Notes under the pieces: generated by a model
What the model saw: only the letters and a program-made list of their open reading frames with translations
Told to the model about the DNA's origin: nothing
The model's database searches: none
DNA from: Protoeuglena noctilucae
Lineage: Eukaryota
NCBI GenBank assembly: GCA_958009085.1
Contig: OY253674.1
Location: 1,116,001 to 1,180,000 of the forward strand
Direction of reading: 5' to 3'
DNA length: 64,000 nt
In this document: positions 1-23,258 of the stretch, one piece after another
Layout of the letters: every line of letters starts with the position of its first letter
Position numbering within the stretch: the first letter of the stretch is position 1
Made by a program: the position numbers and the translations under genes

Positions 1-1904
1 ACCAGCGGATGCAGCGGACGGCCACGCTGCGGTGTCAGCTGGCCTGGCAGCAGGTGCGAGGGATGGGGTGACCACGCGGCACCACGGCGTGTTCACTGAG
101 TCCCAGGGTGTCAGCGTGTCGTGCAATGTTTCTTAACAACAGAGTTGATGCAGCCTCGCTAGGCCTCGTGTCGGAGAGTCACAGCTCGTGTACGCGTCAC
201 CACCACCAACCGCGCCCTGCCTGCAGTTGGAGCTGTGCGTGCACACGGGCCTGCTCGGGAGGGACGCCCGGGAGCGCGCCACGCTCCGCCTGATGTCGAA
301 GCGCCACCATTTGAGCAGCGTCATCTCCCGGCTGAAGGCCGAGGAGGCGGGGTCTCACGCCACCATCACCGCCGACCTACGAATCCAAAACGGCCCACTG
401 ATCGCGACGCTGGAGCGCCTGCGAGACGGCAGCTACAAGGACGACGTTGCGAGGTTCGGGAAGGAAGAGGCGGAGGTCCGCAAGCAGGCCCGGGAATGGG
501 ACCTGGCGGAGTCAGGGAGGCTCGAGGAGCTGGCGTGGGCGCTGTCTGGGACGCTGATGAAGCACCTGACCGTGGCGGCGCTGGCCATCGCCGAGGGGCG
601 CAGGACGGGTGAGGGAGGGACGAGACTGCGAGAGCTGCGGCTGGTATGGGCATGGCATGGGCAGGCTTGCAGCTGTAGTGAGGTCGTAGCTGTGCAATTG
701 CCGTTCTCCTGAACACACAGTGCACGTCACACAACACAGGTTCTCTAGGCCTCCTTTGTTGCGCTGACCTCCCCTCCTGTCCCTAGCACTGTGTGCATGT
801 TACTCGCCGCCTCCCTGTGCAGGTCGCCGCGTGGAGTGGGTCAGCCTTCTGCAGGAGATGGATGCGGAGTTGGAGGAGGCGGCGCTCGAGTCCCTCGCGC
901 AGAACGAGGGGGGGTCAGTCGCCGAAGCCCCGAAGCCCAAGCAGGGCCCAAAGGCGGAGTCGGGGCTGGCCAGGCTGGAGGCGCTGTTGGCCGAGGGCGA
1001 CAGTGGGGACGACGACGACATGCGGAGCGCTCACAGCCGCGAGAGCGCGGCGGAGGACGCTCTGGCAGCGCTGGCAGGAGGGCGTGGGTCAGGTCCTGCC
1101 GTGGACTCTTTGCTGTCGCCTGGGGCGATGCGCGGGCAGGCGCTGGAGAGCGTGCTGATGGGCGGGGCGGGGCAGGGGCAACGGCTGCGGCCGTTCCAGT
1201 TCTCCCGCGGGGCGACGCCCGGCATGGCGCAGGTGGTGGCGCGGCTGGCGCGGTGCCCGGACAGGGACCTGTATGCCATGCTGGGGTCGTGGCGCGAGGG
1301 CGCGGGGCTGGGCGTGGAGAAGGACAACGCGCGGCGCAGCGAGCGGGACCTGGCGTTCCGTTCGGGGTTCTTCCGGCTGCTGGGGGCGCTGCATGCGGGA
1401 GAGGACGCGGCACAGGTGACGATGGGTCGGGTACGGCGCATGGCCAGCTCTGCTTTGGCGGGTCACCCACCTCGTGTCCCTTCGTCCTCCTCGCAGCCGC
1501 ATCGGGGTGCGCATGCCGGCACTGCGCAGGGCCACTCTCATCGCGCCGCCCCTGATGTCCTGGCAGCCCCGTCGCTGTCGAGGTGCAAGCACTGCAGGGT
1601 CCTGCTGTCCTTTCGAGCGCCACGCAAGGGCCGGGAGGGGGGCGACGGGGACAGCGTGGGGCGCGCGGGGGTGTCTATAGCTTCCGATGGCACCAGCGAG
1701 CTTGGGTTGAAACGGGGCTGGGATGGTGCGGGGCGGGAGGGCAGGGGAGCAATGGCTGTGCAGGCCAGGGGCAGCGATGGGCGGGGTGCGGAAGGGGCGG
1801 GGGGTCGCCGGCCTTTGCGGATCGATTTGGAGAGCGAAGCGTCGGAGCTGGGGGCACGGGCGGTGGTGGGCCGAAGTGCAGACAGCGCACCTATGCGGGT
1901 GTGA
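1..1904 (+). CDS. 3' part of a spliced hypothetical protein (helical/acidic), 5' end outside window
   Basis: Coding-like exons at ~226-608 (LELCVHTGLL...), ~823-1414 (VEWVSLLQEMDAELEEAALESL...) and ~1598-1904, flanked by CAG acceptors and GTGAG/GTGAC donors. No recognisable domain. Confidence 0.5.
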
Positions 1905-2188
1905 TTGTGGAAACCTAACCACGGGAAGTGGATGCGAGCGCCTTCGCTTAGGAATTGAATGGATACCAGCACATCCGTGCCGAGCTGCTCTCGACCAATA
2001 GTCATACATGCGTGCGCTCGCTAGCTGGTTGCCGTGGGTGCACGGCTGGGTAACAATATGGCAGCTGCTCCCTGAGCAAGTAATGCAGCCAAGGGGGTTA
2101 GCAACTACACTCGTTTATCCGCTGCCCATGACATGACATGTCTTTGCGGGGAATCTGCTGCCCCTCTGCCTGCCAACTGCGGGCCGGC

Positions 2189-4115
2189 TCATTCCGCATC
2201 CGTTGCAGCGAAAGCCTCGACCCTCTCCGCGCCCGTCTGCCCATCCGACTCTGCCGCGACTCCCTCCTCCTCGCTCACGCTCTCCGCGTCGTCCCTGCCG
2301 TCGCTGTCCCGCTTGTCAAAGAGATAGATCTCCTCGAACCCAAACGACTGCCCGTTCTCCTTCACCCACTTGCCGCTGTAGGTGGTGTTGTAGTTGTAGA
2401 TGAGGTAGTCGGTGAGCTCCGACTCCTTGGGGCGGTGGTGGTTGCACCGGGCCCGGTCGACGAAACCGAAGGCGAACATGGTCGACAGCACGATCGCGTC
2501 CCCTGAGTGGGGGATCTCGCTGGGCACGTGCCACTCGAACTGCGCCTTCTCGGGGTGGAACTGGAACCCCGTGATGGTGCGGTAGGGGTCCTTGCTCTGG
2601 TAAATGGCCACGGACTCGTCCCCCGACTTGTCCTGCGGTGCGGGGGCAGGCCGCAGTCACGGGCAGTTGCACAAGGAAAAGCAGAGAGTTATGAGGGCTG
2701 CACTTAATTAGTAAGAAAGGTGCACAGGGAGTGCCAATGGATCAGGGTTGAGAGCCCACCGCAGCCAGCCACGACAAGCTGCGGACAGGCAACCACAGCC
2801 GCCCTCGCCTTCGCGGTGGCCAGGACGTTGAGGTTGCGCGAGATGGTGGGGTTGGTCTTGAACTCGTCGAGGGAGAGGCCGCGGTGGTGGTTGAAGTAGA
2901 GAATGGCGTCCGAAGCGGCCTTGTTCAAGAAAAAGTACGGGATGCCCTTGATGAGGCGGGAGAAGAAGAGAGCAGGGGTGAAGCTCAGCTGCGGGAGGGG
3001 CAATGGCGAGCCATGAGGGGCGGGGCAGCCATGACGTGTCCCAACAAAAACGATGCACTTGCCAGCTGTGATGGTGCATCCCAGTGACGCAGCCACTTCC
3101 TCGTCTCATGCACAGCGTGAACCGAGTCTGGCATGGAAACGAAACGCCAGTCTCTCGCCTTCTGGACGTAGTCCTGACCGTCGAAGTGGCCACAGACGGT
3201 GTCGTCCATCCCGGCCAAAATCTCCGAGAGGACCTCCAGGCCCAGGCACGTGCCGTGGATGGGGTAGTTGCCTGCAGGGGCAAGGAGGGCGACCTTATCG
3301 GGGGCAGCAAACATACATGTGTGGTGCACGCTCTATGCGCTGTGCACTAACCCTCGTCCATGGCCCTGCTGTAGAGCTTGGCTGACGTCTCTAAGTAGGG
3401 CGCCCCGAGCTCCATGGACGCCTCCCCCCCGGGAAACAGGAGCCCGTGCGTCATTCTGCGGGGACGCTTGCACGCCGTTGTCACATACAAGGTCGGCTCG
3501 CGGTCCCCGCCACGCCAACTCGCAACGCGCTCACTTGAACTTGCGGTCCAGCTCCTCCGTCGAATCGTCCGCCATGATGGGCAGGACGCGAGCACCCGTC
3601 TGCTCGATCCAGCGGACGTAGGACGCCGCGATGTACGTCTTCCCGTCGAAGCTGGGGACATCCTCGGACTCAATGCTCGTGAAGTTGGCCGGCTGCGACA
3701 GGATCCCGATGACGGGGCGGTCAGTGCGCGTCTTGCACCCTGCGCGAGGTCGGCGAAGGGTTGGCGTCGGATTGCGCAGCCACTGAAGCAGGGCGAGCGC
3801 AAACAAGGCGAGCGCAACTAGCGCTGGTGGGCCCGGCCCGGAACGCGCAATCCCCGACCCGACGCCGGTCGCGGTCGCACACAGACGGCAAGTCGATGCC
3901 AACAAACGGTGGCCAAGCCAGGATGGACAAGCGTCCGACTCACATGGGTCCCCCGAGTCTTCGTGGTGGCTTCGCTCCGCGACGTCCTTCTTGGCGTCGG
4001 GCATCGCCTCGGGCATCCCGGTGTACGCGTTCCGCAGACCACATGCTCCGAGAACAGTGACGAGAACGACGGCGAGCGCCAGCGCCGCGCGGATGGCGGA
4101 CGCCCTGCGCGCCAT
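2189..4115 (-). CDS. GGH: Gamma-glutamyl hydrolase (peptidase C26, folylpolyglutamate hydrolase) with N-terminal signal/anchor
   Basis: Spliced motifs [48 protein letters not shown] (catalytic Cys), [18 protein letters not shown] (catalytic His), LIYNY. Hydrophobic N-terminus [23 protein letters not shown]. Confidence 0.93.
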
Positions 4116-4410
4116 GCTGTGCGACCAGTTCGGGCTTTCCTGGATTCCCCGACTTCCCAAAGCAGATTCCCCGATGCAACTCGCCAGTGAGCCATTCGTT
4201 CTTGCCACAAAAGACTCAAGGAGAGGACGGGTGGGGGACCCTACTGGCAGGAGAAAGCCAACAAGCGACGAATTTGACTGGCCCGTGTGTGTATTGGTAC
4301 CCTCTCAACCCCAATTAGCTCAGGTGGCCAACTTCTCTTTGCCAGGTTGTGCCTTGAAGCCGCAATTCAGGACATCCACGTGCTCGGGCCACCACACACG
4401 GCGGCAGCGC

Positions 4411-4884: not shown

Positions 4885-5177
4885 TCTTGAAGGATGAGGC
4901 TTTGCGGAGGGGCGTCCTCGTGTCGAGTTCTGGCCGTGCCGGTTCAGACTCATGTGTCAGTTTTCGGCGCGCTCGAGGACCGTTCCTGCCCGAGCAGCCG
5001 TCGAAGAATTACATGTTTGCCGGAAAAGAAGTCCTATCGAGCGAGCGTATCGAAAGAGGCTCTAGCGAACAAACGCACGCTCGCGGTGACACACTCGCCC
5101 AGCTCGCCGCTCCCCGTCGCCCCTGCATCGTCGTTTGGCCGACTCGCAATCACCATTTGACTGCTGCTGCGGTCGCG

Positions 5178-7177
5178 ATGCCTGCCCTGCCGGCGGGGCC
5201 TCCGCTCGGTTCCCCCGGGCTCAGCCGGCACCGGGCATGCAACCCACCTGGCAACCCCGCCGCGGCCGCTACGTGCCCACGCGTCGGCCACCAACTGCGA
5301 GATTCGTTTCCTCCCGGGCCCATCCCACGCATCTGGTCGGCCCCGCGGCCCAAGCCGCGGCCCCTGAGGGCCGCACCCAGCGATGAAGGGCCAGGAGCTC
5401 CTGGGTCAGTCGTGGGCGCGATGGCCATGGTTACGAGCTCCACCGTGGGTGCGGGCATCCTGGCTCTCCCCACGGTCACCGCGCCTGCCGGGTTCGTCCC
5501 GTCCGCGTCGGCCCTGCTGGGCGTCTGGGTGCTGCTGTGCGCTGAGGCTGTCTTCCTGGCGGACGTCTGCTGCTTCGTCCGGGAGAGGCGCGCCGCGAAT
5601 GGCGACAAGCTCGACGGGGTCGTGTCCATCACAGACATGGCGAGGGAGACGCTGGGGGGCCGCGTGGCGGGTGGAGTGACTGCGCTGTATGTCGCGCTCG
5701 AGTACACCCTCCTCGTGGCGTACCTGTCAAAGGGCGGCGACGTGCTGGGTCAGGCGAGGCGTTCCCGCAGTCAGGGTTACATCCTGGCGTCGCTTGCTGC
5801 CAAAGGCCACCCGTGCCACCTGCTCCTGCCCACTTGCATCGCAGATGGCCAACGCAGGCGGCGTCACGCTGCCGTCCTCCGTGTCCGGCGCGGTGCTGGC
5901 GGGCGCAGTCGGGGCGCTGGCCGTGTGGGGCGGAACGCAGGCCACGGACCGTGCCAACCGCGTCATGACAGCCTTGCTGCTAACAACGTTCGCTGCCATC
6001 CTCGCCGCCGGGGCTCCCACCGCCGACTTTGCCTCCCTCATGACGCGGCCCGGCGACTGGGCCAGCGTCCCCAGCGCTGTCCCCGTCATCTTCCTCGCCC
6101 TCGTGAGTGCACCCGTTTTGCTCGTGGCCCCTCACATGCGTGGTCCCTCGCTCACTCCATGGTTGCTGTCTCGCCTCCAGGTGTACCATGACCTCGTTCC
6201 GGTCGTCTGCGCGTACCTGGGCGGCGACCGGGCCCGCATACGCACCGCCCTCTTTGCGGGTTCCCTGGGACCCCTCGCGATGTTTCTGGCATGGGATGCG
6301 GTGTCCTTAGGGCAGCTGGCGGTGGCGGCTGGGCCAGCAGGGATCGGTGGGCCCATTACCGACCCTCTGGCACTCTTGATGACGGGCGACCACGGGACAC
6401 CGTGGCTGCCGGGGACTGTGCTCGTCTTCAGCCTGACGGCCATCGCCACGTCCCTGTGCTGCACGGCCCTGGCTCTCCTCGAGTACCTCAACGCCGAAGT
6501 GACGCAGGCGGGGGCAAGCGGGGGCAAGCGGTGAGACGAAAGAGCATGCCCATGCATGCTTTTCATGGGATGCATGCCAGCGGGGTGACGAAGCGACTGT
6601 CGCCCGCTCGCCTACTCGCAGGGTGGCTGAGGCGGTGCCCGCTGCAGTGAGGGCGGTGTGGGCGCGCATGCAGGAGTCGCGCACGGTCGCTAGCGTGGCT
6701 GCCGCGAAGTATGGCCTGGAGCGCGTGGCTACCAGCCTCCCGTCCTGGCAGCGGCGCCTGGCGTGCGCCGTGCTGGCCCTGGGACCGCCCCTCTGTGTGG
6801 CGCAGACCTCGCGTGACGCCTTCCTCGGGGCCACCCAGGTCGCCGGTGGGTATCTGGACACCGCACTATACGGCATCCTCCCTCCCGCCATGATCCTCGC
6901 CCTCCGCAGTGCGACAGGCCAGGAAGGCGCAGCACCGCGGGCCGATGTGCCCGGGGGGACGGGCGCCCTGGTGGGCGTGGCCGGCGCGGCTCTGGCGATC
7001 GGGCTCTCGCAAGCAGCCAACGATTTCGCCAGGACGGGGAGCGCTGCAGGCCCTGTTGCAGTGACCCCTGCCGCTGTGCCACCCCATGTTCACGCGGCGC
7101 CTGCTGCCGACGGCGGCGGGGCCTATACGTTCGTTACGACTGCGCCCCCTTTGCCAATTACCAGTGTCGAGCTCTAA
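5178..7177 (+). CDS. Tryptophan/tyrosine (aromatic amino acid) permease family transporter, probable plastid transit peptide
   Basis: GAMAMVTSSTVGAGILALP, LEYTLLVAYLSKGG, VPVIFLALVYHDLVPVVCAYLGGD, FSLTAIATS, AGGYLDTALYGILPPAM. Four exons (5178-5753, 5845-6102, 6181-6530, 6622-7177). Ala/Pro/Arg-rich N-terminus. Confidence 0.88.
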
Positions 7178-7347
7178 GACCCCGAGCCTTGTTCCACACG
7201 GACCTTGCCCTAACTGTGCCCTACCTAGCAGCGGCCCATTGCCGCTGGATGCCGCTTGAAGCGCACTGTTGTTTCGAGGCCTTGTACTGCCGTCGTCCGC
7301 TGCGGCGGCGCGGCGCTCGTGGCGCGGGCTCAATCTGCGAGTTTTGC

Positions 7348-9236
7348 ATGCTGGAGCATTTGCACGGCGCGGGCCGCACGGTCCGTGGCCCCGCGCGTCT
7401 CCCACCATTATATGCGGCATCACTAGAAGGACCGAGGTGAAGAGCTGCGTTTTACAGGCCGGATTTCGCAGCAATTTTGGTAACTGACGAGAGGCCTCGT
7501 CAGCACGTCAACCTGGCGCCCGCAGCAGCCATCACTGCGTGCCCTCCTCGCAGCCGTGTCGTAGTTAAGAGAAGAGAAGCCCGACACAGTGCCGCTGCGC
7601 CCGGCTCGCCCACGTGGCCCCACAGCCGTGCCAGCGTGCCGCGCATCCTGCGGCGTGCAGCCCTGCCCCCGGGACCCGGCCGGGCAGCAGTTGCGGTCCC
7701 CGCGACGCCTCCAACGACCATCTTTCCCCTGCGCACCACGCGCCTTGGCCGATGGCTCCGCAGGGCATGCCCTGCCACGCTGGCCTTCGCGGGATGGCTC
7801 CTCCTGGCAGCAGCGATGAACCTCGCCACCTGGGGCCCTCTGTTGATGGGTCTCCACCACCCCTACGCACCCCTCCTCGCATCCTCTGCGTTCCTCTTCA
7901 CCTTCGTTCTCCTCCCTTGCATCGACGTGGTCCTCGGTGCCGAGCCCTTTCCCGAGCCCTTTGCGTCCCACCCTGAGGCCTCCCCGTCGCTCATCCAATC
8001 GGACGCTCTCTTCCGAATCAACGTGCGGGCGCTCGTTCCCGTGCACGCCGCCACAGTGCTCGGCTTAGCCCACGCCGTCACCGTGGCTGTGGCCCAAGGG
8101 GCGCCTGCGGCCGTCTGGGCGGGGTGGGTGGCGTCGCTGGTGCCGTTTGGGGGCCTGGCGTTCACGGCGGCGCATGAAATGGTGCATGGGGACCAGGTGG
8201 GAGGCTGACCAGGGGATGGGTACCATGACCTCAGGCGTAAGTGGTATCGTGCTGTCGCGCTCATCAGCCACTCTGCCGCTGATGCCGTGTTCCCAGACGA
8301 ATCGGATGCTCGCTCGCATCACGCTGGGCATCCTCTGTTACGGCCATTGGGAGAGGGGCCACCTCCAACACCACGCCAAGGTTGGGACGTGGGAAGACCC
8401 CTCCACAGCGAGGATGGGAGAGACTTTCTATGCCTTCGCCATCCGCAACGTCCGGGGCAATCTGGGTGAGAGGCCAGTCGCGACATCCACTCAGCCGACG
8501 GTGCTGCGGGGCGCGGTCAGAGCTACATGGGCGCCATCACATTCCCGACGCTTGCGTGCGTGCAGCGGAGGCTTGGAATTTCGAAGCCCGTCGGCTTCGC
8601 ACGGCGGGCCTGCCACCGTGGCACCCCACCAACATGTTTTTCCGATGGGCGGCCGCGTCAGCCGCCCCTGCCGCCGCAGCATGGGCCCTGTTCGGCGGTG
8701 CAGGGCTCCTCGCCTTCGCCATGCAGGCCTGCGCGGGCATCTTCGCGTTGCAGCTGGCCGACTACATCGAGCACTACGGCCTGGAGCGTTCCATGGATCC
8801 TGCGACGGGCGCTCCCCGCACCCGGGTCTCCGTTCGCGACTCCTGGAATGCGGACTGGATTGCCACCAACTGCGTCCTCTTCGCCCTGCAGCGGCACTCC
8901 CACCACCACGCGCAGGCCAGCAGGCGAGTGGGCGGCTACGTTGGGGTGCAGGCCTAACAAGTGGTGCCATCACCTGGCACAAGAGCAGGCTGCAGCGGTG
9001 ACCCTCTCTCTATGGCCCTTGCATGGCGTGACAACCAGCCTTATCTTCCGTGCAGGCCCTACCAGAAGCTCGCGACGATGGATGGGTCGCCGCAGCTGCC
9101 CATGTCGTACCCTCCCCTGTCACTGACAGCCCTGGTGCCCCCGCTGTTCCAGAGCATCATGGGGCCCAGGGCTGCGTGGCAGCGACACGTGAGCCAATCG
9201 AACTCCGACCATCGCGCAGCAGAAGCGGAGCTCTGA
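7348..9236 (+). CDS. Alkane 1-monooxygenase (AlkB)-like membrane non-heme diiron enzyme, fatty-acid-desaturase superfamily
   Basis: His boxes AHEMVHG, GHWERGHLQHH, DYIEHYGL, LQRHSHHHA, plus EDPSTARMGETFYAF, SWN and RPYQKL...PQLPMSYP, all typical of AlkB. Exons ~7348-7436, 7554-8196, 8297-8465, 8566-8923, 9056-9236. The first exon and start are tentative. Confidence 0.85.
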
Positions 9237-9516
9237 CGGCGCCTGGCTGCCAAGACCCCACGATCCAAGTTGTGTAAGCAAGCACAGTAGATGCCACGCA
9301 CCCTGCTCTGCACCCAGCAAGGGGCACTTACTCTCCCTGCACTCGCACGTTCCGCTGCCAGACTATTCAAGGCTAGTAGTAGTAGAGCTAGAGTATGCGA
9401 GCCCCTCCGGACAAGCGAGGCCATAGCTGCTGGTCTCGTCCTCAACGGATGAAGGCTTAGAAAGTGCAGTCGGCGAGCAGCGGCGCCAAACAGTCGCTCA
9501 CGGCGCGCCCACCGCG

Positions 9517-11786: not shown

Positions 11787-12198
11787 CGATCCACTTCTAT
11801 GCTCGGACCGCCGTTCACCACGCTCGGGCGTCACGCGCTCACCATTCACGGAGAACCCTGCGCCCCCAGGCTCATGGGCGCGGGCTGCGGGGCGGCCGTT
11901 GCACTCACTAAGTTGCCAAGCAATACTTATTCGTCGAGAATCGACGCCTCCTATTCCCCCGCGGCAAGCGGAGCGCGAGAGGGGTCGGAATAAAAAACGA
12001 CGTTGCCAGGAGCGTCCTCGGGCGCCCGGCGAGCGGCTCGGCCACGCGTGAGTCGAGATGTGTTGGCGCCGGGAGAATCGCGCCCCGCGGAAAGGGGCTC
12101 GTCCCTGCCAGACCTGACGCAGGGCCAGGTCTTTCGATACCGGCGGCCTCGAACGGGCGCACGTCTTCAACACGCGCGTCGCGCTATGCAGGCCGCCT

Positions 12199-13596
12199 CT
12201 ACGTGCCCTGGGGCTCCATGGGCAGGTCACAGAGAGCGACCCGGCAGTCCGGCGCGCCCTCCCGGAGCCGCGGCAGCAGGTGGCGGAAAAAGAGGTCCCA
12301 CGTGTCGCCACGCGTCTCGGGCAGCTCCAGGAGGTGGCGCTGCTTGGCGTCCAGCGCGACGTGGAGCACCACCAGCTGCAGCCGCGTGAGCTGGAGGACG
12401 TCCGAGTCCGCCAGCTTGAGCAGGCGGTTCGGCGTCCCCACCGCGGCGCTGACGCAGTGCCCACGGAGCCACTCCTGCTGCTCCTCCACCTGCAAGCAGC
12501 AGCGCAGGGTCACAGGGTCGACTGCGAGAGGCAGCGCCAGGCACGGCACATCTCCTTCGGCCACCGCGCACCTTGAAGTGGCGCGCAAATAGCTTGGCCA
12601 CGCGCGCCGTCTCCCCATTCAGGGATCGCAGCTGCGTGCAGGCGTGGGACGCCCACGCCGCGTTCGGCGTGATCACCAGCACCACCGGCGCGCCTTTCCG
12701 GGTCGCCTTGCCGGCCTGCGAGGCGGGCGAACGGGTCGTGCGGTCAGAGTAGCAAGTGCAAGTGCAGACAAGCACGCTAGTTTCGTTCCGCGCAAGCCAA
12801 AGCTCCCTCACCTTGGTGACAAATTCCTTCCCCCCGCGGTCGGCAAAGGCGATGCAGACTGCCTCCGCCAGGCCTTTGGACTGGTCCAGGCGCACGAGAT
12901 ACTTGGCATCAAACGCCTCCCTCTCCAGCGGGGACCCGGGCTTGTAACGGCCGTAGCACGCCCAGAGCCAGTCTGACTGCTCCGACGCGCCGCTCTTGAC
13001 GATCGTCGCAGCCCTCTCCTTTTCCTGCGCAAACTCTTTCCCTCCCAACCGCGCCTTCTTCTCTCTCAGACGGTTCTTCATTTTCTGCTTCTTCCGCGCC
13101 TTTGCTGCGTCCTCTTGCCCCACCGCCTCGCTCCCCGGCCCACGCCCGGCCTCCGCGCCAGACCGCTGCTCCACGCCGCCCTCCTCCCCCTCGCCATCGC
13201 CCCCTCCCTCGCCTGACGCGACCCAGCCCTCGCTGTCCCCGCCGTCCCCGAGGGGCCCCACCAGATGGTCGTCAAACCCTAGGTCGTCCCCTCCGCCACC
13301 GCCCAGGTCCATGGACAGAACGGCAGCGTCGTCACCCACGTCCTCCGCTCGCTGGCGCTTCTTGTGTCTGCTATCCACCGAAGGGCGCCGTGGGGCGGTT
13401 AGCCAGGCTTTTTGTCCAGCAACATCCATCAACTCCCTTGCTGCGCTCACCCCCTATCCTTCTTCTCGACGCTCTGACTCTCCGCGTCTTCATCTCGCGA
13501 CTTCTGCTTCCTCTTCAGTCCCAGGGCTTGCGGACCGGCTTTCCGGTTGCGCTCGTGCCCCTGCCCCCCCTTCTTCACCCCGCCCTTGGCCTTCAT
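12199..13596 (-). CDS. CMS1/CMSS1-like 90S pre-ribosome factor (helicase-like fold lacking a DEAD box)
   Basis: GAPVVLVITPNAA, RVAKLFARHFKVEEQ, AAVGTPNRLLKL, LVVLHVALDAKQRHLLELPE. Lys-rich basic N-terminus followed by an acidic linker. Confidence 0.82.
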
Positions 13597-13797
13597 GGCC
13601 GCCAATCGACGAGGTCGGGAAGAGCCAATCGAGCAGAATTTCTGTCCCAACACGGAGGAAGCGCGCGCCGGGAAATGGCCGCCGCGCGCCGCCACGCAGG
13701 CTCCTTACCTGCGTGTCGCGGGCACGCCAGCGAAACGGCTCAGTCACACAGCCTCCCGCCCTGCCCGCGGTGCCAAACGCACCGTTCAGCAAGCACC

Positions 13798-14447
13798 ATG
13801 GGCAAGAAGGGCAAGGACAGGAAGGCCAAACGGTCGCTCGCGCTGGAGGACCTCTCTCCGGTGCGTGGGCGCGTTTTACAGGACTGCCGCGGAGCCTCGG
13901 GGTTGCGCGTGACGCTGGACATGTTGTGTTCACAGGCCGCTGACGACGGGTGGAAGACGAGCACAGCGGACATCGCCATGGAGACGGACGACGAGGAGAA
14001 AGATGCGGCGGCGGCCCCCGACGTCATGGGCGCAGACGAGGCCCGCATGGATGAGGAGCGCGCAGCATTGGGCAATCTGTTCAGTCTCTTGGAAGGTGCT
14101 AGCCGTGGACGGCGTCGCGCCTGCGTTTGGACACGCCTGAAGCCAGCGCGGCGGTCCAGAGAGCCTGCCGCGCTGACTGCCTCGCCGCAGGGACGGACGG
14201 GTTGGATCCGAAGGAGATACTGAAGAAGAACAGCCATCTGGTGACACCGAAAGGCGTCAAACAGGCCCTGAAGCTCGGCGTGCGCGTGAGCGTCTCGGGG
14301 AAGCGCGGCAACGCGACGGGGAAGCGCAAGGCCGCGAAGAGGGTGGCTGCGATCAAGGCCATGAGTTTCAGGGACCGGCTGAGCATGGGCGCGCAGAAGA
14401 AGACCGACAAGGCCTTGCGGCGCACCCAGCTCAAGCGCATGTACTAG
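13798..14447 (+). CDS. Small Lys/Arg-rich hypothetical protein, possibly nucleolar
   Basis: Three exons join in frame: MGKKGKDRKAKRSLALEDLSP / AADDGWKTS...METDDEE / TDGLDPKEILKK...KRKAAKRVAAIKAMSFRDRL...RRTQLKRMY*. Confidence 0.65.
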
Positions 14448-14532
14448 GTATTGATAGCCAGGTTTCCTTTTCGTCCCTTCCGTCACTTCGCAGCGATTCA
14501 ATTGCATTGATTTCTCGCCAAGAGCGTCGCCG

Positions 14533-17500
14533 TCAGTACCTCCCGCGGCGCGGGCCTCCCCACCCGCCGTGCCCCCGCCCGCCGCTCCGCACCCCCGCCG
14601 CCAGCTCCATGCGCCGCACCTCCTCCCGCAGCGTGTCCGGCAGATCTCCGAAAGCCACCTCCACCTCCGGGTACTCCCCGTTCCGCGCCTGCCCCACCGC
14701 AAGCGCCTCCACCTCTGTTCTCGGGTTCCAGTATATCACGGGCTTGGCCTGAGTCTTGCGGAAGAGATCGTCCAACGACGGCGGCTCGGGCTCCGGCGGC
14801 GCCGCGTCGCGCGCTCCCCGGCCCCGCAACTCCCGCCCCGCGTCCCCCCGGCCCTGCGTGCATGGAACAGTGCCCCCATGCTGCGATGCGGTCGGAGCCC
14901 CCAGAAAAGTCACTGCAATCGAATGACAGCGACAGCAACCGCCCCGGCCCCGCCCGCGTCACCTCTCGCGCATCGCTGCCGTTGCGCACCCCCGGCACGT
15001 CCCTGGGGTCCATGCCCCGCCCCACCGTCGTCATCCCCCTCAGTTCTTCATCCCTAATGTCGCGCGAGGGCCTGTCCTCCCTGTGAATGCAAGCGGCGCT
15101 GAGGCGAGTCGCATCAAACCAAGCGCGAAGGGGCGGGTTGCAACTCAGCAGGGGCTGCGTTGGGTGCGACCACTCACCGCAGCTCCCTCCCTGGCGACGC
15201 GCCGCGACGAGGCGCGGGGCGCTGCGAAGACGTGAGGTAATTCACTTGTGGATTGCAGTTGCCAGGTTAAATCCTGGCCCGGGCGAGGCATGGGCAAGCA
15301 GCAGCCGCGTCCCATGGGCAGCACACGCTGATGGGACACACGCATGTCACCTCATCCGATCGGCTGCCTGCCGCCATACGGCCCTCTCCGTCGCGCCGGA
15401 CCACCTCCACGACGCGCGTGGCTTTGTTTCTGCGGCGATTTGAGAGATTTGACCCGGTTTTCAAGTCTTGCTTTGCCATAAAGGGGCAACCCCCGCAGAG
15501 AACCCCCGCAGAGTCATGCACAAACGCAAGCAGCCCCGCCTGCCACGTCCTGAGCACCCAAAAGCTTCCACATACACGCATATGCAAGCAGGGACTCGCC
15601 TGGCCCCCACGTCCTGCACTGCTTGGTGCAGCGCATCCCCCAGCAAGCGGTCGGGTGCACGGCCCCTCCTCACAACCGGAGCCCTGTCATCTGCGGCACC
15701 TGCGGGAAAGCGAGGGAAGCCAATGACGACCAACGACACCCGCGTGGCGATGGATAGGCACAGCCACAGCACTCCCGACCACCCCTGTCGACCACCCGCA
15801 CCACCACAGCACTTCCCCCACCCACCACCAACCCCCCACCGGCCGCAGCACCCTGCCTGCTCACCCGCGGCGTCCGCCTCGCCCGCGCCCTGCAGCACCG
15901 CCTCCGACTGCGCCTCGATGATCCTCCTCGCGTCCTCCACGGCCACCAGTGCCGCCGACAGCGTGCGTCCGTCCACGCGGTGGTCGGGGAACCTGAGCCC
16001 CTGCAGGCCCTCCACGGCTCTGGCGGCGGCGTCGGCGTCAGAGAACACGCACCAGCAGTGGGTCTTGATGGTGGGCATCCACAGGCCCTCCAGGGTCCCG
16101 TACTCAGACAAGAGATCACGCACCTGCGGGGCAGGGACCGGGGCTGACCAAAAGATGAGGAACGATGATTGGCATAGACAGGTGTAGATTGGCAGATAGC
16201 ATGGTAGATAGCTCCAGGCGTAGAGAGGCGTAGAGTGTGCGCAGCTGTGATGGGCGCACAGGGTGAGAGCCCCAGTGCCGTGGTCGTGCTAAGGGGGTTG
16301 GAAAGGTCATTGGCGTTGCGGGTTCAAGGGGCCGAAACGCGGCCCGCCTGGCACCAGAAACGGGGAGCGCGGCGGGGCTGGGAAACGTGCTCTGTCGCTC
16401 GCGGCTCTGATGCGCATGACATAACTCTGGACCGGCCACAAGATGGCTGCCAATGGCTGCGCCATCTGCCACTCTGTGGCTAAGCCTGGCTCGCTGTCCC
16501 GTCCTTTGCTTGCAGCAGAGCGTCCCGGGGTCCAAGGCATTTCGCCACCCCCGTCAAATGGGCTCATTCCCATCTCAGCCGCGTCGTTGAACCGCCCAAT
16601 GTCCCCACTCCCATCCACCATTCCCATCTCCCTTATTTCTCCCCCTCTCGCCTACCACCACCACCACCACCATCCCCCTCACGCCATCCACCCCCTCATC
16701 CGCACCCTCCACCCCCACGCACCCACCACCCCCGCCATCCAGCCCCATGCGCACCGTCCCTCAGTTGGGCCTGTCCCAGCGAGAGTCCCCCGTCTTGTTG
16801 TTCCAATAGTAGGTGCGGCCCTGGTCATCCTTGTGCTCCTCCCACCCAGCCGCCACCGCAGACGCCGACAGCCCAGGGCGCGCGGGGGCCGGCGGGGCCG
16901 CAGCAGCCGCGCCGCCGGCCGCACCGCCGCCGTACGCGCCACCCGCGCCCGCATTGTACCCGCCGTATGCAGGGGCACCCTGGCCCTGGCCGGCAGCGGC
17001 GTAGCCACCGGCAGCTCCGGCGCCACCCGCAGGGGCCGGGTACCCGCCGTTGCCCCCCGGGGCTGAGCCGTAGCCCTGCCCCGCGGCCGGCGCAGATCCA
17101 AAGCCCTGCGCCGCCGGCTGTCCACCGTACCCACCGCCAGGCGCAGAGCCGTACCTCGCGGCTGCGGGAGCGGGGTCGTACGCGCCACCACCAGCCGGGT
17201 ATCCCGCGTTGCCACCGGCCGGCGCCCCGTAGCCGCCCGCCGCCGGGCCTGGAGCGCCAGAGCCGTAGCCGCCCGCAGCAGGGGCCGCCTGGGAGCCATA
17301 GCCGCCCCCACCGGCAGCGTAACCACCGCCACCACGCCCGTATCCGCCCGCAACAGGGGCAGCTCCGCCGTAGCCGCCCTGTGCGGGGCCCTGCGCAACT
17401 GCAGCGGGGGCGGCAGCGGCAGCCGACCCGTACCCAGCGCGCGGCTCAGGCGCGCCACGGGCGTACGTGGGGGGATAGTCAGCGGGTGCCCTGTCCTGCC

Positions 17501-20500
17501 CAGCACCCGGGCGGTCGTAGCCAGCGGGGGCGCGAGAGCGGTCATAGGCAGGAGCAGGGTCATAGGCACCCCCGGGGGCGCGGCCCTGCCCGGGGCGGTC
17601 GTAGGGCGCGGGGTGCTGCCCACTCCCGTACCCAGCGGCCCCTCCAGCCGCGCTGCCATAGCCACCAGGCGCACTGTATGAGCCATCGCCGGGGCGGCTG
17701 CCGTACCCGCCCGCCGCCGCGCTGCCGTACCCGGCGCCCGGGGCAGCGCCGCTGCCGTAGCCTCCGCCCGCGGCCGCGCTGCCATAGCCGCCCGCGGCGC
17801 TGCCATAGCCGCCCGCGGCACTGCCATAGCCGCCCGCCGCGCTGCCGTAGCCACCGGCGCTACCGTAGCCCCCACCGCTGCCGTATCCACCCCCCGGTGC
17901 GCCGCCGTAGCCCCTGCCGCCGGGGCCGGGCGGGCCCCGGTCGAAGCGGGACTGCCGCTCGCCCCCGTCGTGGTGCTGGGGCCGGTCGGGCCCCGGGTAG
18001 CCCGGCTTGCCGAAGCCGCCCCCACCGCGCTCGACCCACTCGGCGTACCCCGTGATGCCCAGGTCGAGGCAGCGGTTGACGTGCTCTCCCTTGGCGACCT
18101 CCATGAGGCAGGTGCGGAGGGGCTCAACGCTGCGTGGCGACCCGTAGATGCGGATGATGGCGGGGTCCTGGTGCTGGTCCATGAAGATGCGCGCCCCCTT
18201 GGCCTGCGACTGGAGCTCCTTGATGGTCCGCCCGCCGCTGCCGATGATCTTGCCGCACATGCCCTGGGGGATGTGCACCAGCCACTCGCTCGTGTACTTG
18301 GTCTCGTCCAACAGCGACTGCGGGTGGGGAGGGTACATAAGTTGAGGCAGGTCGCATTTCAACCAACAGCGACTGCAGGTGAGTGGGGCAGGGGACGAGG
18401 CAGGTCGAAGATGACACTACTTGTTGGGTAGAGCATGGTGAAGCGAGCGGCGCGGTAACAGCAACCGCCATTAGAAGTGCAGTCACAGCAACTCTCTCAA
18501 CCCTCCCACTCGCCTTGGCGGGGTTGGTCTCGATGGGGGCGGTGATCATCCCCCGCACGAACTCGGCGCACTCGCGGACGCGGGCGGCGGCCCCCGCCAC
18601 CGTGCAGGTCTTGCCCTCCCCGTCGCCCCGCTGCATGTCGACACGCACGCGGTACTTGGTCATCAAGCCCCGAATGGTCTCCCCCGCGCGCCCGATCACG
18701 CGGCCGACCATGGGCTCCGGGACTTGGATGACCTCCGTGGCCTGGTCCTCTTCCGTGTCGTCCGGGGCAGCGTGGTAGATCTGGTCCATCACCAGCTGCT
18801 CCGCCAGCTCCACGCAGGCCTGGGGGGGGCGAGGTGAGAAGGGATATGATGGGTCAGTGACACGCAGGCCTGGGGGGTGAGGTGGTGAGAGAGACGATGG
18901 GTCAGTCAAGTGTAGGCATGGGGCAATGCAGCGGTGGCTGCTGCGCAGGCGGCCACCAGCGATGCCTGCTCCTCATCTACAGCAGCTCTCGCAGCACAGT
19001 CCGTGTCACAGACTGACAATCAGATGCCTGAGCGAGACTCGCCTTGGACGGCCCCGTGGCGCGGAGGCGGTAGTACTTCCGCCCCGGCTGCTGCCCGCAC
19101 AGCGACCCGTCCACCACCCCGTCCCCGACCACCACGAAGATGCGGGCCTGGGTGCGGCGCATGAAACTCCGCACCAGATCCACGCCGCGGAGCACGAGGT
19201 CGTGGGCCTCGAGGCTGGCACGGTCCAGCGCACCCAGCATGTCGGAACGCAGGCCGGTGGGGAGGGCCAGGTTGCCGATCAGGTCCACTTCCACGAACCA
19301 GTCCCGCGCCTCCTTGTCCCTCGTGAACGCGAAGCCGTCCAGGCCGCGGTCCTGCAGCAGTGAAGCGGGGTCTCAGAGGGTGTTGCAAACACGACACCCA
19401 GGCAGTCACCCGCATCAACCTTTCATACATGCACCATGCGCATGTGCGATTGTCAAGCGCCAATGGCTGAGACTTGCTGCGGCGCTCACGTTCTCGAGCT
19501 CGGAACTGGTGCCCGGGCCCAGCATGCGGAGCACGTCCTCCTGCGAGTGATGCACACGTATTGCAAAATGAACGTCACGTCATGCCACCCACAGCGCGAC
19601 ACCATGCCATGCCCAAAGCACTCGCTCTATGCGGCATGGCGCTGGCGATAAGAGAGACGCTTATATCTTATCGGCCGCACTATGTACTCACCGGCTTGAG
19701 CTTGATGGCGGAGGGCTTGGCCGTTGCAGGGGCAGGGCGGCCCTCCTTCAGATGCTGGGCCACCGCAGCTGCCGCCGACGCCGCCGCTGCCGCCGCTGCG
19801 GCTGCGAGCTTTTGCTGATCGCCCGCGGTTGGCTTGGGCTGCTCCTGCAAGGGCAGAGACGGACGGGCAAGCTTGACAATCAGCGAATCCGTGAAAATCA
19901 CGCATAAGTGGGGTGCATGGCGGGCATGCTGAAAACCACCATGCCATTGATGACTAAGCGAGGGGTCACTGCTGCAGCGGAGCTCAGGCGGAGGGGGGGG
20001 GACGGGGTGGACGGGCAGAGGGGCGGAATCGAGTTTGTGGTTCGGTCATATGCCGGATGTGCGGGGGAGAAGCGCAGGTGCGCTAATCTGAGCGAGTGCT
20101 GGGCAAAGAGGGCCTCTCGGGTAGGGCTTGTGCATGTCGGTGAATGGAGGGTGAGGTGCGGGATGTTGTACGGGGCCGTGGATTGCAAGGGCCGTGGGCG
20201 GTGGTCGGGACTCGGTGGGGTGGGATCCGTATGGCGCTTCCTGTGAGGCCAGAGGGAGCGCGTGTGCCGGGGAGGTTGGGTGTGGTCGCTGCCACCACGC
20301 GTGATCGTGGGCGAAGGATCAAGGCATGTGCGTACGTCGCGCAACGCACCTGGTCAGCGTGAGCCCTCATGATACGGCGCCTCCGCTCTTGCGTTTGGCA
20401 CCGCCGAAGCGCAGGGGCGTGTGGGAACACCAACAACGCCCCAGGCTTGGATGGCCGTGTCATCTCTGGTGACGCTCGCGCCCAGCCTGCCTGGCTGCCC

Positions 20501-21533
20501 ACCCTTCCACCCTTCCAGGCCGGCCATCACACGGGTCCATCCCGTAAGTACATTGGCTCGCCATTCGCCCGCCTTGGGCTATCGAAACGGGCAATGGCAG
20601 GAAAAAGAAAAGGCCTCCCTAACGGGCCATGAAAACTCGAAACTCCCCATTACAGGGGCAAAACGGCATGGAAAAGGGCACAGGCCCGGCAAGCGCAGTG
20701 CGTGAACCATGCATGCAGACAGCAGCCACCCATTGCGACACGCCAGGGCCACTCACGTTGTGCTCCCGCAGGGGTCGCACGAATCCCTCCACCTTGATCG
20801 CCGCCGACGCCTCCCCGGCCCCGGCGGGCTTTTCCTCTCCCGGCGCCTCATGCTGCGAGCACAGTGGACACAGCTGCTGTGTGGACCAACATGCGGGGTG
20901 GTACCCATGCCAACAAGCATATGCACAGCAAAGGCGCAGCGAGCAGCAATTACAACTTACAATCACTTGCTGCATGCATATATGTGCCAAAACGTTCTCG
21001 CCTTCGCCTCCTTTGCCGGTGCCTCGCCCTCTGCCGCGTCCTCTGCCGGACGCTTGCGTGACTCCGCCGCACTCTCCCCTGCGCCAGCCTGGTTCTCCGT
21101 CGCCGGCACCTCCTCCTTCACCTCCAGCTCCTCATGTGTCTCCTCAGGCTTCTCCTCATGCTTCTCCTCAGGCTTCTCCGCACCCTCGCCATCACCCACT
21201 GCCTGGCCGTCCACTGCGCCCGCAGCCTCGTGCGTCTGGGCCGGCTCCTCCTCCTCCTCGTGCGGCGCGTCGCCCTGCTTGGCGTAATGAATCAACAACG
21301 TCAGATGGTTGCGCCAAGGCAAGTCACGCGCGGCCCCAAGCGCGTGGGCTCACCGCCACGGGCGGTGTCGGCGGAGGGAGGACCTCCCCGCGCGCCTCCA
21401 GCGACTCCAGGTGCGCGCGCAGACGCTCCTGCAGCTCCGCCTTCTTTCCCGTTCCCGGGAGATCGTAATTGGCCAGTTTCGCCTTCAGGTCCGCGACCCG
21501 CAGCGAGGCAAGCCATGCTTCGTCCACTGGCAT
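14533..21533 (-). CDS. ACIN1: Acinus (ASAP/EJC-associated splicing factor): SAP domain, RRM and RSB motif; its 4633-nt intron 3 hosts a nested gene
   Basis: SAP domain LASLRVADLKAKLANYDLPGTGKKAELQERL (21533-21354). RRM split between IKVEGFVRPLREHN (ends 20757) and VRDLLSEYGTLEGLWMPTIKTHCWCVF (starts 16123), joined in phase 0. C-terminal RSB motif SLDDLFRKTQAKPVIYWNP (~14775-14720). Confidence 0.88.
16761..19845 (-). CDS. KH-domain RNA-binding protein with Gly/Tyr/Ala low-complexity region and C-terminal WW domain, nested in the Acinus intron (start exon uncertain)
   Basis: Phase-0 exons 19845-19692, 19540-19490, 19351-19043, 18819-18514, 18317-16761. KH motifs VPEPMVGRVIGRAGETIRGL and IPQGMCGKIIGSGGRTIKELQ, a divergent KH-like segment upstream, and WW GWEEHKDDQGRTYYWNNKTGDSRWDRP*. 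Confidence 0.88.
17000..17910 (-). repeat. Coding low-complexity repeats (GGYGSAA/GGYG units)
   Basis: Near-tandem 21-nt units (e.g. GCCATAGCCGCCCGCGGCGCT on +) at ~17770-17890 encode GGYGSAA. Dispersed GYG motifs continue to ~17000. Confidence 0.85.
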
Positions 21534-22136
21534 GGCTCCGCGCGATGCTCCCGCGGGCGAAGCCCAAGAGACTACTGCGAACAAGAGGGTCTGATACAGT
21601 CACGTATGTGACAAGGATCGCGCGGCGGGAGCGCCCCGGAAAAGCGGCACGGGACAGGGAAGCGCAGGCTCCTTTGGGGGCGCGGGAGGCTTCCCTCCCC
21701 TTCCCTGACACCATGCACGATGCCCCGTGGATCTCTGAGGGTCATGACATTTACCAGAGTACCGCACGGAGCCAACGCGGGCCGAAACAGCGCCAAGCAG
21801 CCCCCCTTTCGATAGTTACAAGCTCCCCTTCGCCCCCGGCACGGTGTAAGTCATCCCCCGCACGCGTCCAACAACCTACGCCAATCACGCGTGCGATCCC
21901 CCGGCGGCGGCCCAGCCGCGGAGCCCAGAAAAGAAGATCGCCGGGTCGGCGCCACGCAGCCCTCCGTCGACCCCGTCAGCGAGCCAGGGACTATCTTGTC
22001 TGCTGATAATCACAGGACAGCCCAAGAAAGCTCCATCGCCGCTCACCTGTGCGAGGGGGACGCCCGAACAGCCCAAGACGTCAGAGAAACGATTAAATGG
22101 CACCTGTTTCTCTACAGTGCGGAACTAATAAGCCGC

Positions 22137-23258
22137 ATGGACCTGGAGCGGGCCCCGTTCACCCGGAGGAGCCGGCTGGCACATGGCACTCTGGCGGAAC
22201 TTTTCCCCACGAAAGGCCCTAGCAGCTCAGGATTGCGGTAATTTCGCAAAGAGCGTCCCGTTGAGCCTGCCGCCCCACAAGGTTGGGAGCTGCCGTTCAC
22301 GTAGAGAGCCAAGGGGTGCCCCGGAAGAAGCGCTCGTGCGTTGGAGCGACGCCCGCGGGCGGGAAGCTGGTGCGGGCCTCGCGCGCCTGCATGCCTCGCT
22401 CCTGTGCACGCGAAGCTCGCCGCGCACAGCCCCCCGCGCTTGCGGACCCGCCGGCATGCGGCATGCCGGCGAGGCATGACATGCGGTGGCCGTCGCTTCC
22501 GCCCCGACGATCGTTGCCGACGCAGCGCCGTTCACCTGGCCACAGATTGGATAGGGGATGGAGGCGGGGCACCTGGAGGAGGGCACGGTCCAGGTTCGGG
22601 CCCGCACGTGCGGGCTCGGCTCTGCGAGTGAGGGCGCGCTTCTGCTGTTCGGTATCTGGGTGAGACAATGCGTGCGCACTTCTGCATCACAGCCTCGCCG
22701 TCCTCCCCGCAGTCGGGCTCGTCGCACTTGGCGGGGAGCTGATGGCGGTGCCTCACAGGACCGCGTTGACGGGGTACAAGGCGCCGAATGCGTACGGGTC
22801 TCGGCCGACCATGTCCTCCGAGACGACGTACCGCGCTTGCAACAAGGTGCGCATCAGTGGTCCATGTATGCACACATGCCACTAGTTCAGTACCACGGTG
22901 TGCATCCCGGGATGTTCATCCGCAGAAGGTCGCGTTGGTTGGGGAGCGCACGGGAACGCGCAACAAGAAGCTGATGCCGTACTACCCATGGGCAACGAGG
23001 AACCGGCCAACGACGACGCAGCAGAACATCGTGGGGACGCGGTACGGCACGCACGCCACCAGCAAGGAGCGGTACAAGGGGTCATCTACGGTCTCGCTGT
23101 CCAGTGGGGGGATCCACGCCGACAGCCCCTGGCGCACGACCAACCAGGTGTTCAACGAGTGCGCGCTTGTGCGGGACACCGTCGGCCTCACCAACCAGGG
23201 CATCGCGTCCGAGCTGGCCAAGAGCATGCACAAGAAGCAGGGCATTTACGGCAAGTAG
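22137..23258 (+). CDS. Hypothetical protein (5 exons), possibly flagellar-associated
   Basis: Phase-consistent GT-AG exon chain MDLERAPF... / EPRGAPEE... / WIGDGG... / TALTGYKAPNAYGSRP... / KVALVGERTG...PWRTTNQVF...NQGIASELAKSMHKKQGIYGK*. The function is a guess from composition. Confidence 0.55.

Follow-up and report, generated by a model that had tools for sequence, protein, structure and literature searches.

How can the coding exons of one RNA-binding protein be accommodated within a single intron of the gene for another? This question arises on the minus strand of the window (the whole 64,000-nucleotide stretch analyzed here, from a GC-rich alga), where the RRM of an Acinus gene is interrupted by a 4633-nt intron (20756..16124) containing, on the same strand, exons that encode KH, KH, a Gly/Tyr-rich stretch, and WW. 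The sequence-only reading of this DNA had regarded these exons as a gene in their own right, nested in the intron. We consider it probable that Acinus and KH-WW are not host and nested gene, but belong to one transcription unit that can end in either of two 3' modules.

The Acinus gene and the exons inside its intron

RNA support for the exons of this locus consisted of contigs assembled from environmental metatranscriptomes. Three RNA runs were used (X1, X2, and X4), which come from environmental samples containing a near-identical organism and not from the sequenced strain in culture, and X1 and X4 are 2 samples of one study. X2 holds unspliced pieces (for example 15597..16051, 14575..15007, 19053..19466, and 21385..21613) and is thus uninformative on splicing, so joints missing from it were not counted. 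Across the RNA runs, cover was absent from 20028..20575 and 21672..21945.

The most upstream exon detected is a 5'UTR exon (22047..22101), of which only the last approximately 55 nt were seen; it is spliced to 21574 over a 472-nt intron by a joint present in one X4 contig (21574->22047, CT..AC on the plus strand, side 55). Exon 1 (21354..21574) contains the ATG at 21533 and encodes an N-terminal SAP domain (PF02037, E 3.1e-12). Exon 2 (21002..21274, phase 0) encodes an acidic Glu-rich linker and ends in a GC donor (AAG followed by GCGAGA). The joints on both sides of exon 2 (21273/21353 and 20852/21002) were found in X1 and X4. Exon 3 (20757..20852) ends with the residues REHN immediately before the GTGAGT donor at 20757/20756, and the next Acinus exon, R1 (15865..16123), begins with VRDLLSEYG after a CAG acceptor at 16123. 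These ends were checked against the sequence and coincide exactly with those proposed for the split RRM in the sequence-only reading; an RNA joint with the same ends is present in X1 and X4.

R1 encodes the remainder of the RRM. It matched the Pfam RRM_1 profile at positions 16–69 of 70 (E 1.4e-4, 22.1 bits; cutoff, 20.7), and its sole PDB match was the RRM of human Acinus (6g6s_A, E 1.3e-3), starting from chain residue 24. Because the 2 matches begin at position 16 and residue 24, respectively, the first RRM strand must come from exon 3. Exon 3 alone produced no Pfam or PDB match, and its last 14 residues were assigned by inspection, on the basis of length, pattern, and frame, to RRM_1 profile positions 1–14 as the putative first strand. 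Downstream of R1, the exons R2 (15600..15699, with a GC donor) and R3 (15351..15429) have joints in X1 and X4, and R4 (15178..15221) has its upstream joint in X1 and X4 and its downstream joint in X4 only. R5 (14963..15080) was placed by frame and RSB homology. The intron that follows it (14962..14854, 109 nt, GT..AG) is predicted, the sole contig across it (X2, 14575..15007) being unspliced. The last exon, R6 (14533..14853), encodes the RSB motif (RNPS1-SAP18 binding; PF16294, E 6.5e-9), an Arg/Gly tail, and the stop. This motif also matched the Drosophila Acinus RSB in the ASAP core (4a8x_B, E 4.4e-5), while a word-index protein search with the RSB exon was empty, a weak result given that such searches miss relatives (see below). 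Acinus, or ACIN1, is the SAP-RRM-RSB component of the ASAP complex. Judged by its sequence, in which all 3 hallmarks were found, the 489-aa product is an Acinus orthologue with a predicted role in this complex.

The 5 inner exons, named K1 to K5, are phase 0 at both ends. K1 (19844..19692) is the first KH-WW-specific exon, is Ala-rich, and lacks a Met (RNA joints, frame, and codon scan), and K2 (19540..19490) has 17 codons with the first Met of the KH-WW-specific part (RNA joints and frame). K3 (19351..19043) encodes a degenerate KH-like domain without GXXG, and K4 (18819..18514), the joints of which are present in X1, encodes a KH domain; K3 and K4 both end in GC donors. K5 (18317..16761) encodes a second intact KH, a Gly/Tyr/Ala-rich region of approximately 370 residues, and a C-terminal WW, and the reading frame closes with TGA at 16763..16761; an X1 contig covers 16738..18317. 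Pfam recognized KH_1 twice in the inner exons (K4, E 1.7e-11; K5, E 7.1e-12) and WW once (E 2.7e-10), the latter at residues 490–517 of the 518 encoded by K5, after the Gly/Tyr-rich spacer. The earlier description of 5 same-strand, phase-0 KH/KH/Gly-Tyr/WW exons with a stop at 16761 is thus borne out by frames, by Pfam, and by an X1 contig with all 4 internal joints. Most other introns are small, as had also been noted: 10 of 13 minus-strand joints skip 79–223 nt, and the outliers skip 472 (in the 5'UTR), 912, and 4633 nt.

Splicing of exon 3 to two acceptors

The joint between donor 20757 and acceptor 16123, which produces the Acinus form, was found in X1 and X4 (2 of the 3 RNA runs) and removes the distal intron of 4633 nt (16124..20756; joint 16120->20754, cut +3, GT..AG). 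It has 27+3 letters on its shorter side, which is below the 31-letter bridging rule of the tool. A single X4 contig runs through exon 1, exon 2, exon 3, and 30 nt of the RRM exon. Acinus mRNA therefore skips the 5 KH-WW exons, as had been proposed. The same donor is also joined to acceptor 19844, at the start of K1, in one X1 contig of 2428 nt that has 30–31 letters on the exon-3 side and carries all 4 KH-WW internal joints. In this KH-WW form the proximal intron of 912 nt (19845..20756; joint 19843->20756, cut +1, GT..AG, side 30) is spliced out. The joint was not seen in X4 or X2, in both of which cover of the KH exons is thin. In addition, an X1 contig of exons 1–3 terminates exactly at 20757; a graph built with k = 31, the value of this assembler, breaks in this way at a true branch.

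Could these pieces have been brought together artificially? A misassembly, in which unrelated genes were wrongly put inside the Acinus gene, is extremely improbable. Canonical splice junctions from exon 3 to 19844 and to 16123 occur in RNA contigs of independent environmental samples, which indicates that all pieces lie on one pre-mRNA in that order, and no evidence supporting a misassembly was found. A 53-kb DNA contig in the DNA run examined (X5) also spans the whole stretch with 0 differences, although it may be the assembly's own source and is for this reason not independent support.

Phase 0 is shared by exon 3 and K1, and either spliced form can be read without interruption from the ATG at 21533, so that one donor and 2 acceptors give open frames of 489 aa (Acinus) and 974 aa (SAP-KH-KH-GY-WW, form B), the arrangement expected of an alternative 3' exon module. 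In the model that we favor, transcription would start upstream of 21574, and the 3 exons common to both forms would supply the SAP domain, the acidic linker, and the first strand of the Acinus RRM. Use of donor 20757 with the distal acceptor 16123 would complete the RRM and add the RSB, yielding the 489-aa Acinus orthologue, whereas its use with the proximal acceptor 19844 would add the degenerate KH, 2 KH domains, the Gly/Tyr-rich region, and the WW, yielding a 974-aa FUBP-like protein. Since the 2 acceptor choices are mutually exclusive for each pre-mRNA, the amounts of the 2 RNA-binding proteins would be coupled through 3' splice-site choice. The earlier proposal that the output of Acinus hinges on a splicing decision around the KH-WW exons is supported by the 2 acceptors of donor 20757.

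The 5' edge of the KH-WW module bears most directly on whether it has a start of its own. The first base of K1 directly follows a pyrimidine-rich CAG acceptor; the exon is joined to exon 3 and open in phase with it, and the X1 contig crosses this edge unbranched. No ATG occurs in K1 or in the 67 in-frame codons between the last upstream stop and K1. Furthermore, none of the 3 RNA runs has a contig within 19845..20755, yet one contig joins across it; the lack of cover at 20028..20575 was counted as evidence only because a contig bridges that stretch. These observations do not support the view of KH-WW as an independent gene that starts within the intron, and make unlikely the corresponding alternative, a true same-strand nested gene with a promoter within the 912 nt or immediately before K1 and with the K2 Met as start, in which the exon 3 to K1 splice would be a minor by-product of the Acinus pre-mRNA. 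Such a gene would be compatible with the in-frame Met in K2, which an independent transcript could use, with the detection of the exon 3 to K1 joint in only 1 of the 3 RNA runs, and with the non-additive depths of the X1 contigs (exons 1–3, 40.1; Acinus bridge, 39; KH chain, 22.5), by which the 2 forms were not ranked because the tool warns that depths cannot do so. Contigs lose rare variants and cannot reveal RNA starts or ends, so a weaker internal promoter would escape notice. We nevertheless favor the single transcription unit, in which the SAP-headed form would be the main or only route to the KH-WW protein.

At the other end of the module, RNA contigs continue past the KH-WW stop to 16094, over the 16123 acceptor (X1 piece 16094..16634; X4 piece 16267..16624), and we regard 16094..16760, which is unspliced over this acceptor, as the probable KH-WW 3'UTR. 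Within it, 16645..16685 was repeat-masked by the tool. TGTAA and AATAAA are absent between 16760 and 16124 and also after the Acinus stop, which says little because this organism may use another signal. The 3'-end signal claimed inside the intron is thus putative, with an RNA contig running across the acceptor and neither motif present. The run-on contig and the lack of a recognizable poly(A) signal between the KH-WW stop and the 16123 acceptor suggest that in some KH-WW transcripts the Acinus exons may serve as a long, spliced 3'UTR. If they do, the KH-WW stop would lie ahead of several exon junctions, and the stability of these transcripts would be tied to the exon-junction machinery to which Acinus belongs. 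The same 2 observations would also fit a KH-WW branch that is mainly a non-productive decoy, in which use of the near acceptor ends the frame at 16761, well before the remaining Acinus exons, and leads to RNA degradation, so that only the Acinus level is tuned. This is quite improbable, because the KH, KH, and WW domains are all intact within the 791 KH-WW-specific codons and stand in the conserved order of the family, which is not expected of a decoy, and the depth of the KH chain in X1 is similar to that of other parts of the locus.

The KH-WW protein and its relatives

Because an exhaustive search did find relatives, we treat the empty word-index protein searches with K3, K4, and the RSB exon as weak evidence. 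FUBP-like KH-WW proteins of algae and other eukaryotes have two or three type-I KH domains. K3 also had no Pfam match and no usable match in the ESM Atlas. Among the 150 best relatives of the second KH, 18 combine KH domains with a C-terminal WW; these KH-WW relatives were chosen by BLAST match to the WW end, and the WW is present in all of them, with one (P0121) scoring 26.3 bits, just below the cutoff of 26.9. Only 1 of the 18 has a SAP domain (P0034), and 15 start with Met. The 17 relatives without SAP indicate that the family does not require this domain, a point in favor of a nested gene with its own start.

The exception, KAK9917735.1 of the green alga Coccomyxa subellipsoidea (WJX75_007636, 588 aa), points in the opposite direction, since it has an N-terminal SAP (E 5e-14) in the same place as form B. 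The 2 proteins are collinear in blastp from the degenerate KH to the WW (E 4e-25 and 1e-8), with residues 278–533 of form B matching residues 199–444 of the Coccomyxa protein at E 4e-25. They share the SAP at the N-terminus, 3 collinear KH positions, the Gly/Tyr-rich spacer, and a WW that forms the last approximately 30 residues. They differ in that the Coccomyxa protein is recorded as a stand-alone protein, has 29% identity over the KH part, and retains an intact first KH; K3 aligns with this KH, but without its GXXG loop. "Far upstream element-binding protein" is the name that one source gives to a fragment in the KAK9917735.1 cluster. A stand-alone SAP-3xKH-GY-WW protein in Coccomyxa supports the SAP-headed form as the one likely to be functional here. 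The SAP-to-SAP match between the 2 proteins is weak (E 0.011), and it does not distinguish a SAP of KH-WW origin from one of Acinus origin.

We also searched the whole window by tblastn, with the 18 KH-WW relatives as queries, for a second KH-WW copy or a remnant SAP, and only K4 and K5 were matched. In the closest relative locus found, which is metagenomic (L001), it is Hsp70, not Acinus exons, that comes after the KH-WW gene; a Pfam scan of its plus strand (72 open frames of 40 aa or more) detected only KH/WW and Hsp70, and no Acinus families. With Hsp70 in this position, the merger of Acinus and KH-WW looks lineage-specific.

Origin, regulation, and comparison with known loci

Acinus and KH-WW are separate where checked, in the stand-alone Coccomyxa protein and in the metagenomic relative; here, both proteins would be made from one promoter with a common DNA/RNA-tethering SAP head. 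We infer that a KH-WW gene formerly equipped with its own SAP head inserted into this intron of Acinus and has since relied on the Acinus head. Acinus elsewhere helps to splice neighboring and long introns. An autoregulatory switch at this locus is conceivable purely by inference. The fuller scenario, that selection of the near (19844) or the far (16123) acceptor is a regulated switch, possibly self-regulated by Acinus or the KH protein, and that the locus arose from a SAP-headed KH-WW gene that lost its head and captured that of Acinus, a merger that would have done no harm because both genes began with the same domain, seems to us unlikely.

If the single-unit model is correct, the locus offers a natural instance of mechanical coupling, through one 3' splice-site choice, between the outputs of a splicing regulator and of another RNA-binding protein, and a clean example of an intron-landed gene that was absorbed into its host as an alternative ending rather than remaining autonomous. 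It is also a warning for annotation, as a gene caller would fuse, split, or drop one of the 2 proteins. Within the parts of the literature covered by our full-text searches, no paper on a shared Acinus/KH-WW locus or on SAP-KH-WW proteins appeared.

Compared with Acinus/ACIN1, the 489-aa product has the SAP, the Acinus-type RRM, and the RSB motif in canonical order. It differs in that a 4.6-kb intron with the coding exons of a second protein interrupts its RRM, and in that its first 3 exons would also serve this KH-WW protein. Like same-strand nested (intronic) genes, the KH-WW exons make up a complete coding module, stop included, inside a same-strand host intron, but no first exon, start codon, or promoter of its own was found here, and the module joins the host exons in frame. 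Further parallels are loci in which shared 5' exons precede alternative blocks of 3' exons, such as calcitonin/CGRP and Drosophila lola and mod(mdg4). As in these, one promoter and a shared N-terminal domain would be combined with alternative C-terminal modules that confer different binding specificity. Unlike in these, the modules here are 2 otherwise separate, conserved RNA-binding proteins, and the shared part ends within a folded domain, the RRM, of one of the products.

Exon organization and domains of the two spliced forms

We read the minus strand of 14000..22500 and assembled the exons by coordinate, which verified all coordinates of the sequence-only reading. The coding sequence opens with an ATG at 21533 (minus strand), and exon 3 ends in ...REHN followed by a GTGAGT donor at 20757/20756. 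Acinus resumes after a CAG at 16123, giving an intron of 4633 nt. The five KH-WW exons proposed within this intron are present on the same minus strand, all in phase 0: K1 (19844..19692), K2 (19540..19490), K3 (19351..19043), K4 (18819..18514), and K5 (18317..16761), the last with a TGA stop at 16763..16761. From the single ATG both spliced products are open, one of 489 aa (SAP, acidic linker, RRM, and RSB) and one of 974 aa (SAP, acidic linker, an orphan RRM strand, Ala-rich K1, K2, a degenerate KH, KH, KH, a Gly/Tyr/Ala-rich region of approximately 370 residues, and WW). In the Gly/Tyr-rich part of K5 (17641-17880), 21-nt tandem units encode repeated GGYGSAA (family D1).

By Pfam, exon 1 carries SAP (E 3.1e-12), K4 and K5 each carry KH_1, and WW occupies the final 28 residues of K5. 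In the Acinus part, RRM_1 falls on the exon starting at 16123 and the RSB motif on the last exon (E 6.5e-9); in the PDB this last exon matches 4a8x_B, the Drosophila Acinus peptide in the structure of the ASAP core. The RRM_1 match begins only at profile position 16 of 70, and the sole PDB match of that exon, the human Acinus RRM 6g6s_A, begins at chain residue 24. Because both align without the RRM start, the RRM is truly split by the intron, as had been claimed. The last 14 residues of exon 3 have the exact length to fill RRM_1 positions 1-14; since alone they match nothing in Pfam or the PDB, they were assigned to the RRM start by inspection. With SAP, RRM, and RSB, the Acinus half has each of the three sequence hallmarks of its family; its binding in ASAP is putative.

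RNA joints and the choice of acceptor

A word search identified four metatranscriptome runs, all from one study, with 34-47% of the window's sampled words, while DNA runs of 'organism A' contain all sampled words of the stretch. Assembled contigs of three environmental RNA runs (X1, X2, and X4) and one DNA run (X5) were aligned over 14000..22200. The RNA contigs gave 13 minus-strand joints, all GT..AG or GC..AG after stated shifts; ten measure 79-223 nt and the other three 472 (5'UTR), 912, and 4633 nt. Among the introns of the two spliced models, 4 of 13 have a GC donor (AG/GCGAG; 15599, 19042, 18513, and 21001, minus strand), an unusually high GC-AG share; all four are backed by RNA joints, as are 12 of the 13 introns overall, one being inferred. 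In two KH-WW introns (18824-18919 and 18308-18388), the 3' splice site and first exon bases are duplicated in tandem just upstream of the real acceptor (repeat families D11 and D16), and these copies could be alternative acceptors or a trace of intron origin.

The 912-nt and 4633-nt joints start from one donor, 20757. The 20757->16123 junction predicted by the sequence-only reading was found in X1 and X4, where a 540-nt X4 contig consists of exon 1 (142 nt), exon 2 (272), exon 3 (96), and 30 nt of the RRM exon. The 20757->19844 joint was found in X1 only, in a 2428-nt contig comprising 16738..18317, the other four KH-WW exons, and 30 nt of exon 3, so that the whole chain of five exons is joined in one contig. 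The X1 contig of exons 1-3 ends exactly at 20757. This is the pattern of a true branch, at which contigs of a de Bruijn assembler end k-1 letters past the shared node; the Logan contigs were presumably built with k=31. The short sides of the two long joints (27+3 and 30+1 letters) are at or under the tool's caution limits; a 30-letter exact match on the locus's one canonical donor, in frame, is not chance in an 8.2-kb target. A misassembly can be almost entirely discounted because RNA splices across all parts in order; a 53-kb X5 contig also covers the stretch with 0 differences, X5 being maybe the assembly's own source. X2 yielded mostly unspliced pieces and is uninformative on splicing. Its low-depth contigs run unspliced through introns (14575-15007, 15597-16051, 18403-18684, and 19053-19466) and represent pre-mRNA or else DNA carried over into the library, a caution that coverage by RNA-library contigs does not prove mature RNA.

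K1 starts at a pyrimidine-rich CAG acceptor. No Met occurs in the 67 codons from the last in-frame stop to K1, nor in K1; within the KH-WW-specific part, Met first appears in K2. No RNA contig lies within 19845..20755 in any of the 3 RNA runs, and one contig joins across. Of the nested gene described earlier, the exons and frame inside the intron stand, whereas a separate gene is unsupported: in the X1 contig its first exon is spliced in frame from exon 3, and neither K1 nor the open stretch before it has a Met. The shared ATG, the Met-less K1 at an acceptor, and the empty 19845..20755 interval make one transcription unit the simplest reading, in which the exon-3 donor would pick the near or the far acceptor. 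We consider it probable that a common promoter and common SAP exons, with mutually exclusive 3' splice-site choice, give two RNA-binding proteins. Alternatively, the KH-WW exons could be driven also or mainly by an internal promoter and translated from the Met in K2, the splice from exon 3 to K1 being a by-product. The support of that joint in one run only, the non-additive contig depths, and the KH-WW relatives without SAP, which are the majority, leave room for this arrangement, which we nevertheless regard as unlikely. At the 5' end of the locus, a 472-nt 5'UTR intron (21574-22047) was seen in X4 and an X2 piece (21385-21613) is unspliced across 21574; there may be two alternative 5' ends.

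Relatives of the KH-WW part and conservation of the arrangement

Neither K3, K4, nor the RSB exon gave a match in word-index protein searches. When the N-terminal 132 residues of K5 were searched exhaustively, 1120 proteins scored E <= 0.001, and comparisons used the best 150 of these. Local blastp with both spliced forms also matched the WW end in 18 of these 150, and the common N-terminal 183 residues and the Acinus-specific part in none (E <= 1e-3). By Pfam, all 18 contain KH_1 and WW (one WW at 26.3 bits, just below cutoff), which places the KH-WW half, by sequence, in the eukaryotic KH-KH(-KH)-WW family. Only one of the 18 has SAP (residues 6-41): P0034, a 588-aa Coccomyxa subellipsoidea protein (KAK9917735.1, locus WJX75_007636) with three more isoform records by cluster look-up; a fragment in its cluster is named 'far upstream element-binding protein' by one source. 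Phmmer with two SAP segments found SAP-like heads among the best 150 only in P0034, P0003, and, weakly, P0004. Residues 278-533 of the 974-aa form align with 199-444 of P0034 (29% identity, E 4e-25), and so do the WW ends (E 1e-8; both blastp). By this alignment the Pfam-silent K3 is collinear with the first KH of P0034, which has a GXXG loop whereas K3 does not. Coccomyxa thus has, like the 974-aa form, SAP-3xKH-Gly/Tyr-WW in a single protein, which supports the SAP-headed form being a functional protein rather than splicing noise. We consider it very improbable that the KH-WW branch acts mainly as a decoy reducing Acinus output, its domains being intact and family-typical.

P0011, the closest relative by coverage among the best 150 (36% in local BLAST, 41% by phmmer), is encoded on a 23-kb metagenome contig, L001, of which tblastn with both forms matched the KH-WW part alone. 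In a Pfam search covering all 72 of its plus-strand open frames that reach 40 aa or more, KH/WW was found in 151..2541 together with an Hsp70 that lacks introns (6386..8419), and no SAP, RRM, or RSB within 10 kb downstream or in the available 1.3 kb upstream. The KH-WW gene is thus found there and Acinus exons are absent downstream, the upstream side being too short to judge. Because Acinus exons do not follow this gene, the Acinus/KH-WW merger looks lineage-specific. L001 is 71% G+C, its KH-WW gene is one open frame (151-2541) from both KH domains through WW, with Hsp70 approximately 3.8 kb downstream, and its organism appears intron-poor relative to that of the window. Within the whole window, tblastn with the 18 relatives matched K4 and K5 alone, which leaves neither a second KH-WW copy nor, within the 912-nt intron, a remnant SAP exon.

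3' ends and comparison with known loci

After the KH-WW stop, RNA pieces were found in X1 (16094..16634, 541 nt) and X4 (16267..16624). Since X1 covers no other intron of the locus, this stretch belongs to mature RNA and is most simply the KH-WW 3'UTR, and the X1 piece shows that some molecules at least cross the 16123 acceptor unspliced. No TGTAA or AATAAA occurs in 16760..16124 or after the Acinus stop, and the host's poly(A) signal may differ; the separate KH-WW poly(A) site assumed in the sequence-only reading is putative, as contigs cannot settle RNA ends. A convergent plus-strand gene (14093-14576; open frame ending at 14447) has one 95-nt GT..AG intron at approximately 14094-14188 in X1 and X4, and its RNA contigs reach 14476-14576, so that its 3' end meets or overlaps that of Acinus at 14533.

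The locus couples a splicing regulator to a second RNA-binding protein, and the autoregulation suggested earlier is possible. Full-text searching (titles and abstract openings) returned no shared Acinus/KH-WW locus or SAP-KH-WW protein. Nothing established is overturned. Alternative 3' modules on shared 5' exons are familiar from calcitonin/CGRP, lola, and mod(mdg4); here, in a well-supported example, an intronic gene appears to have been absorbed as such an ending.
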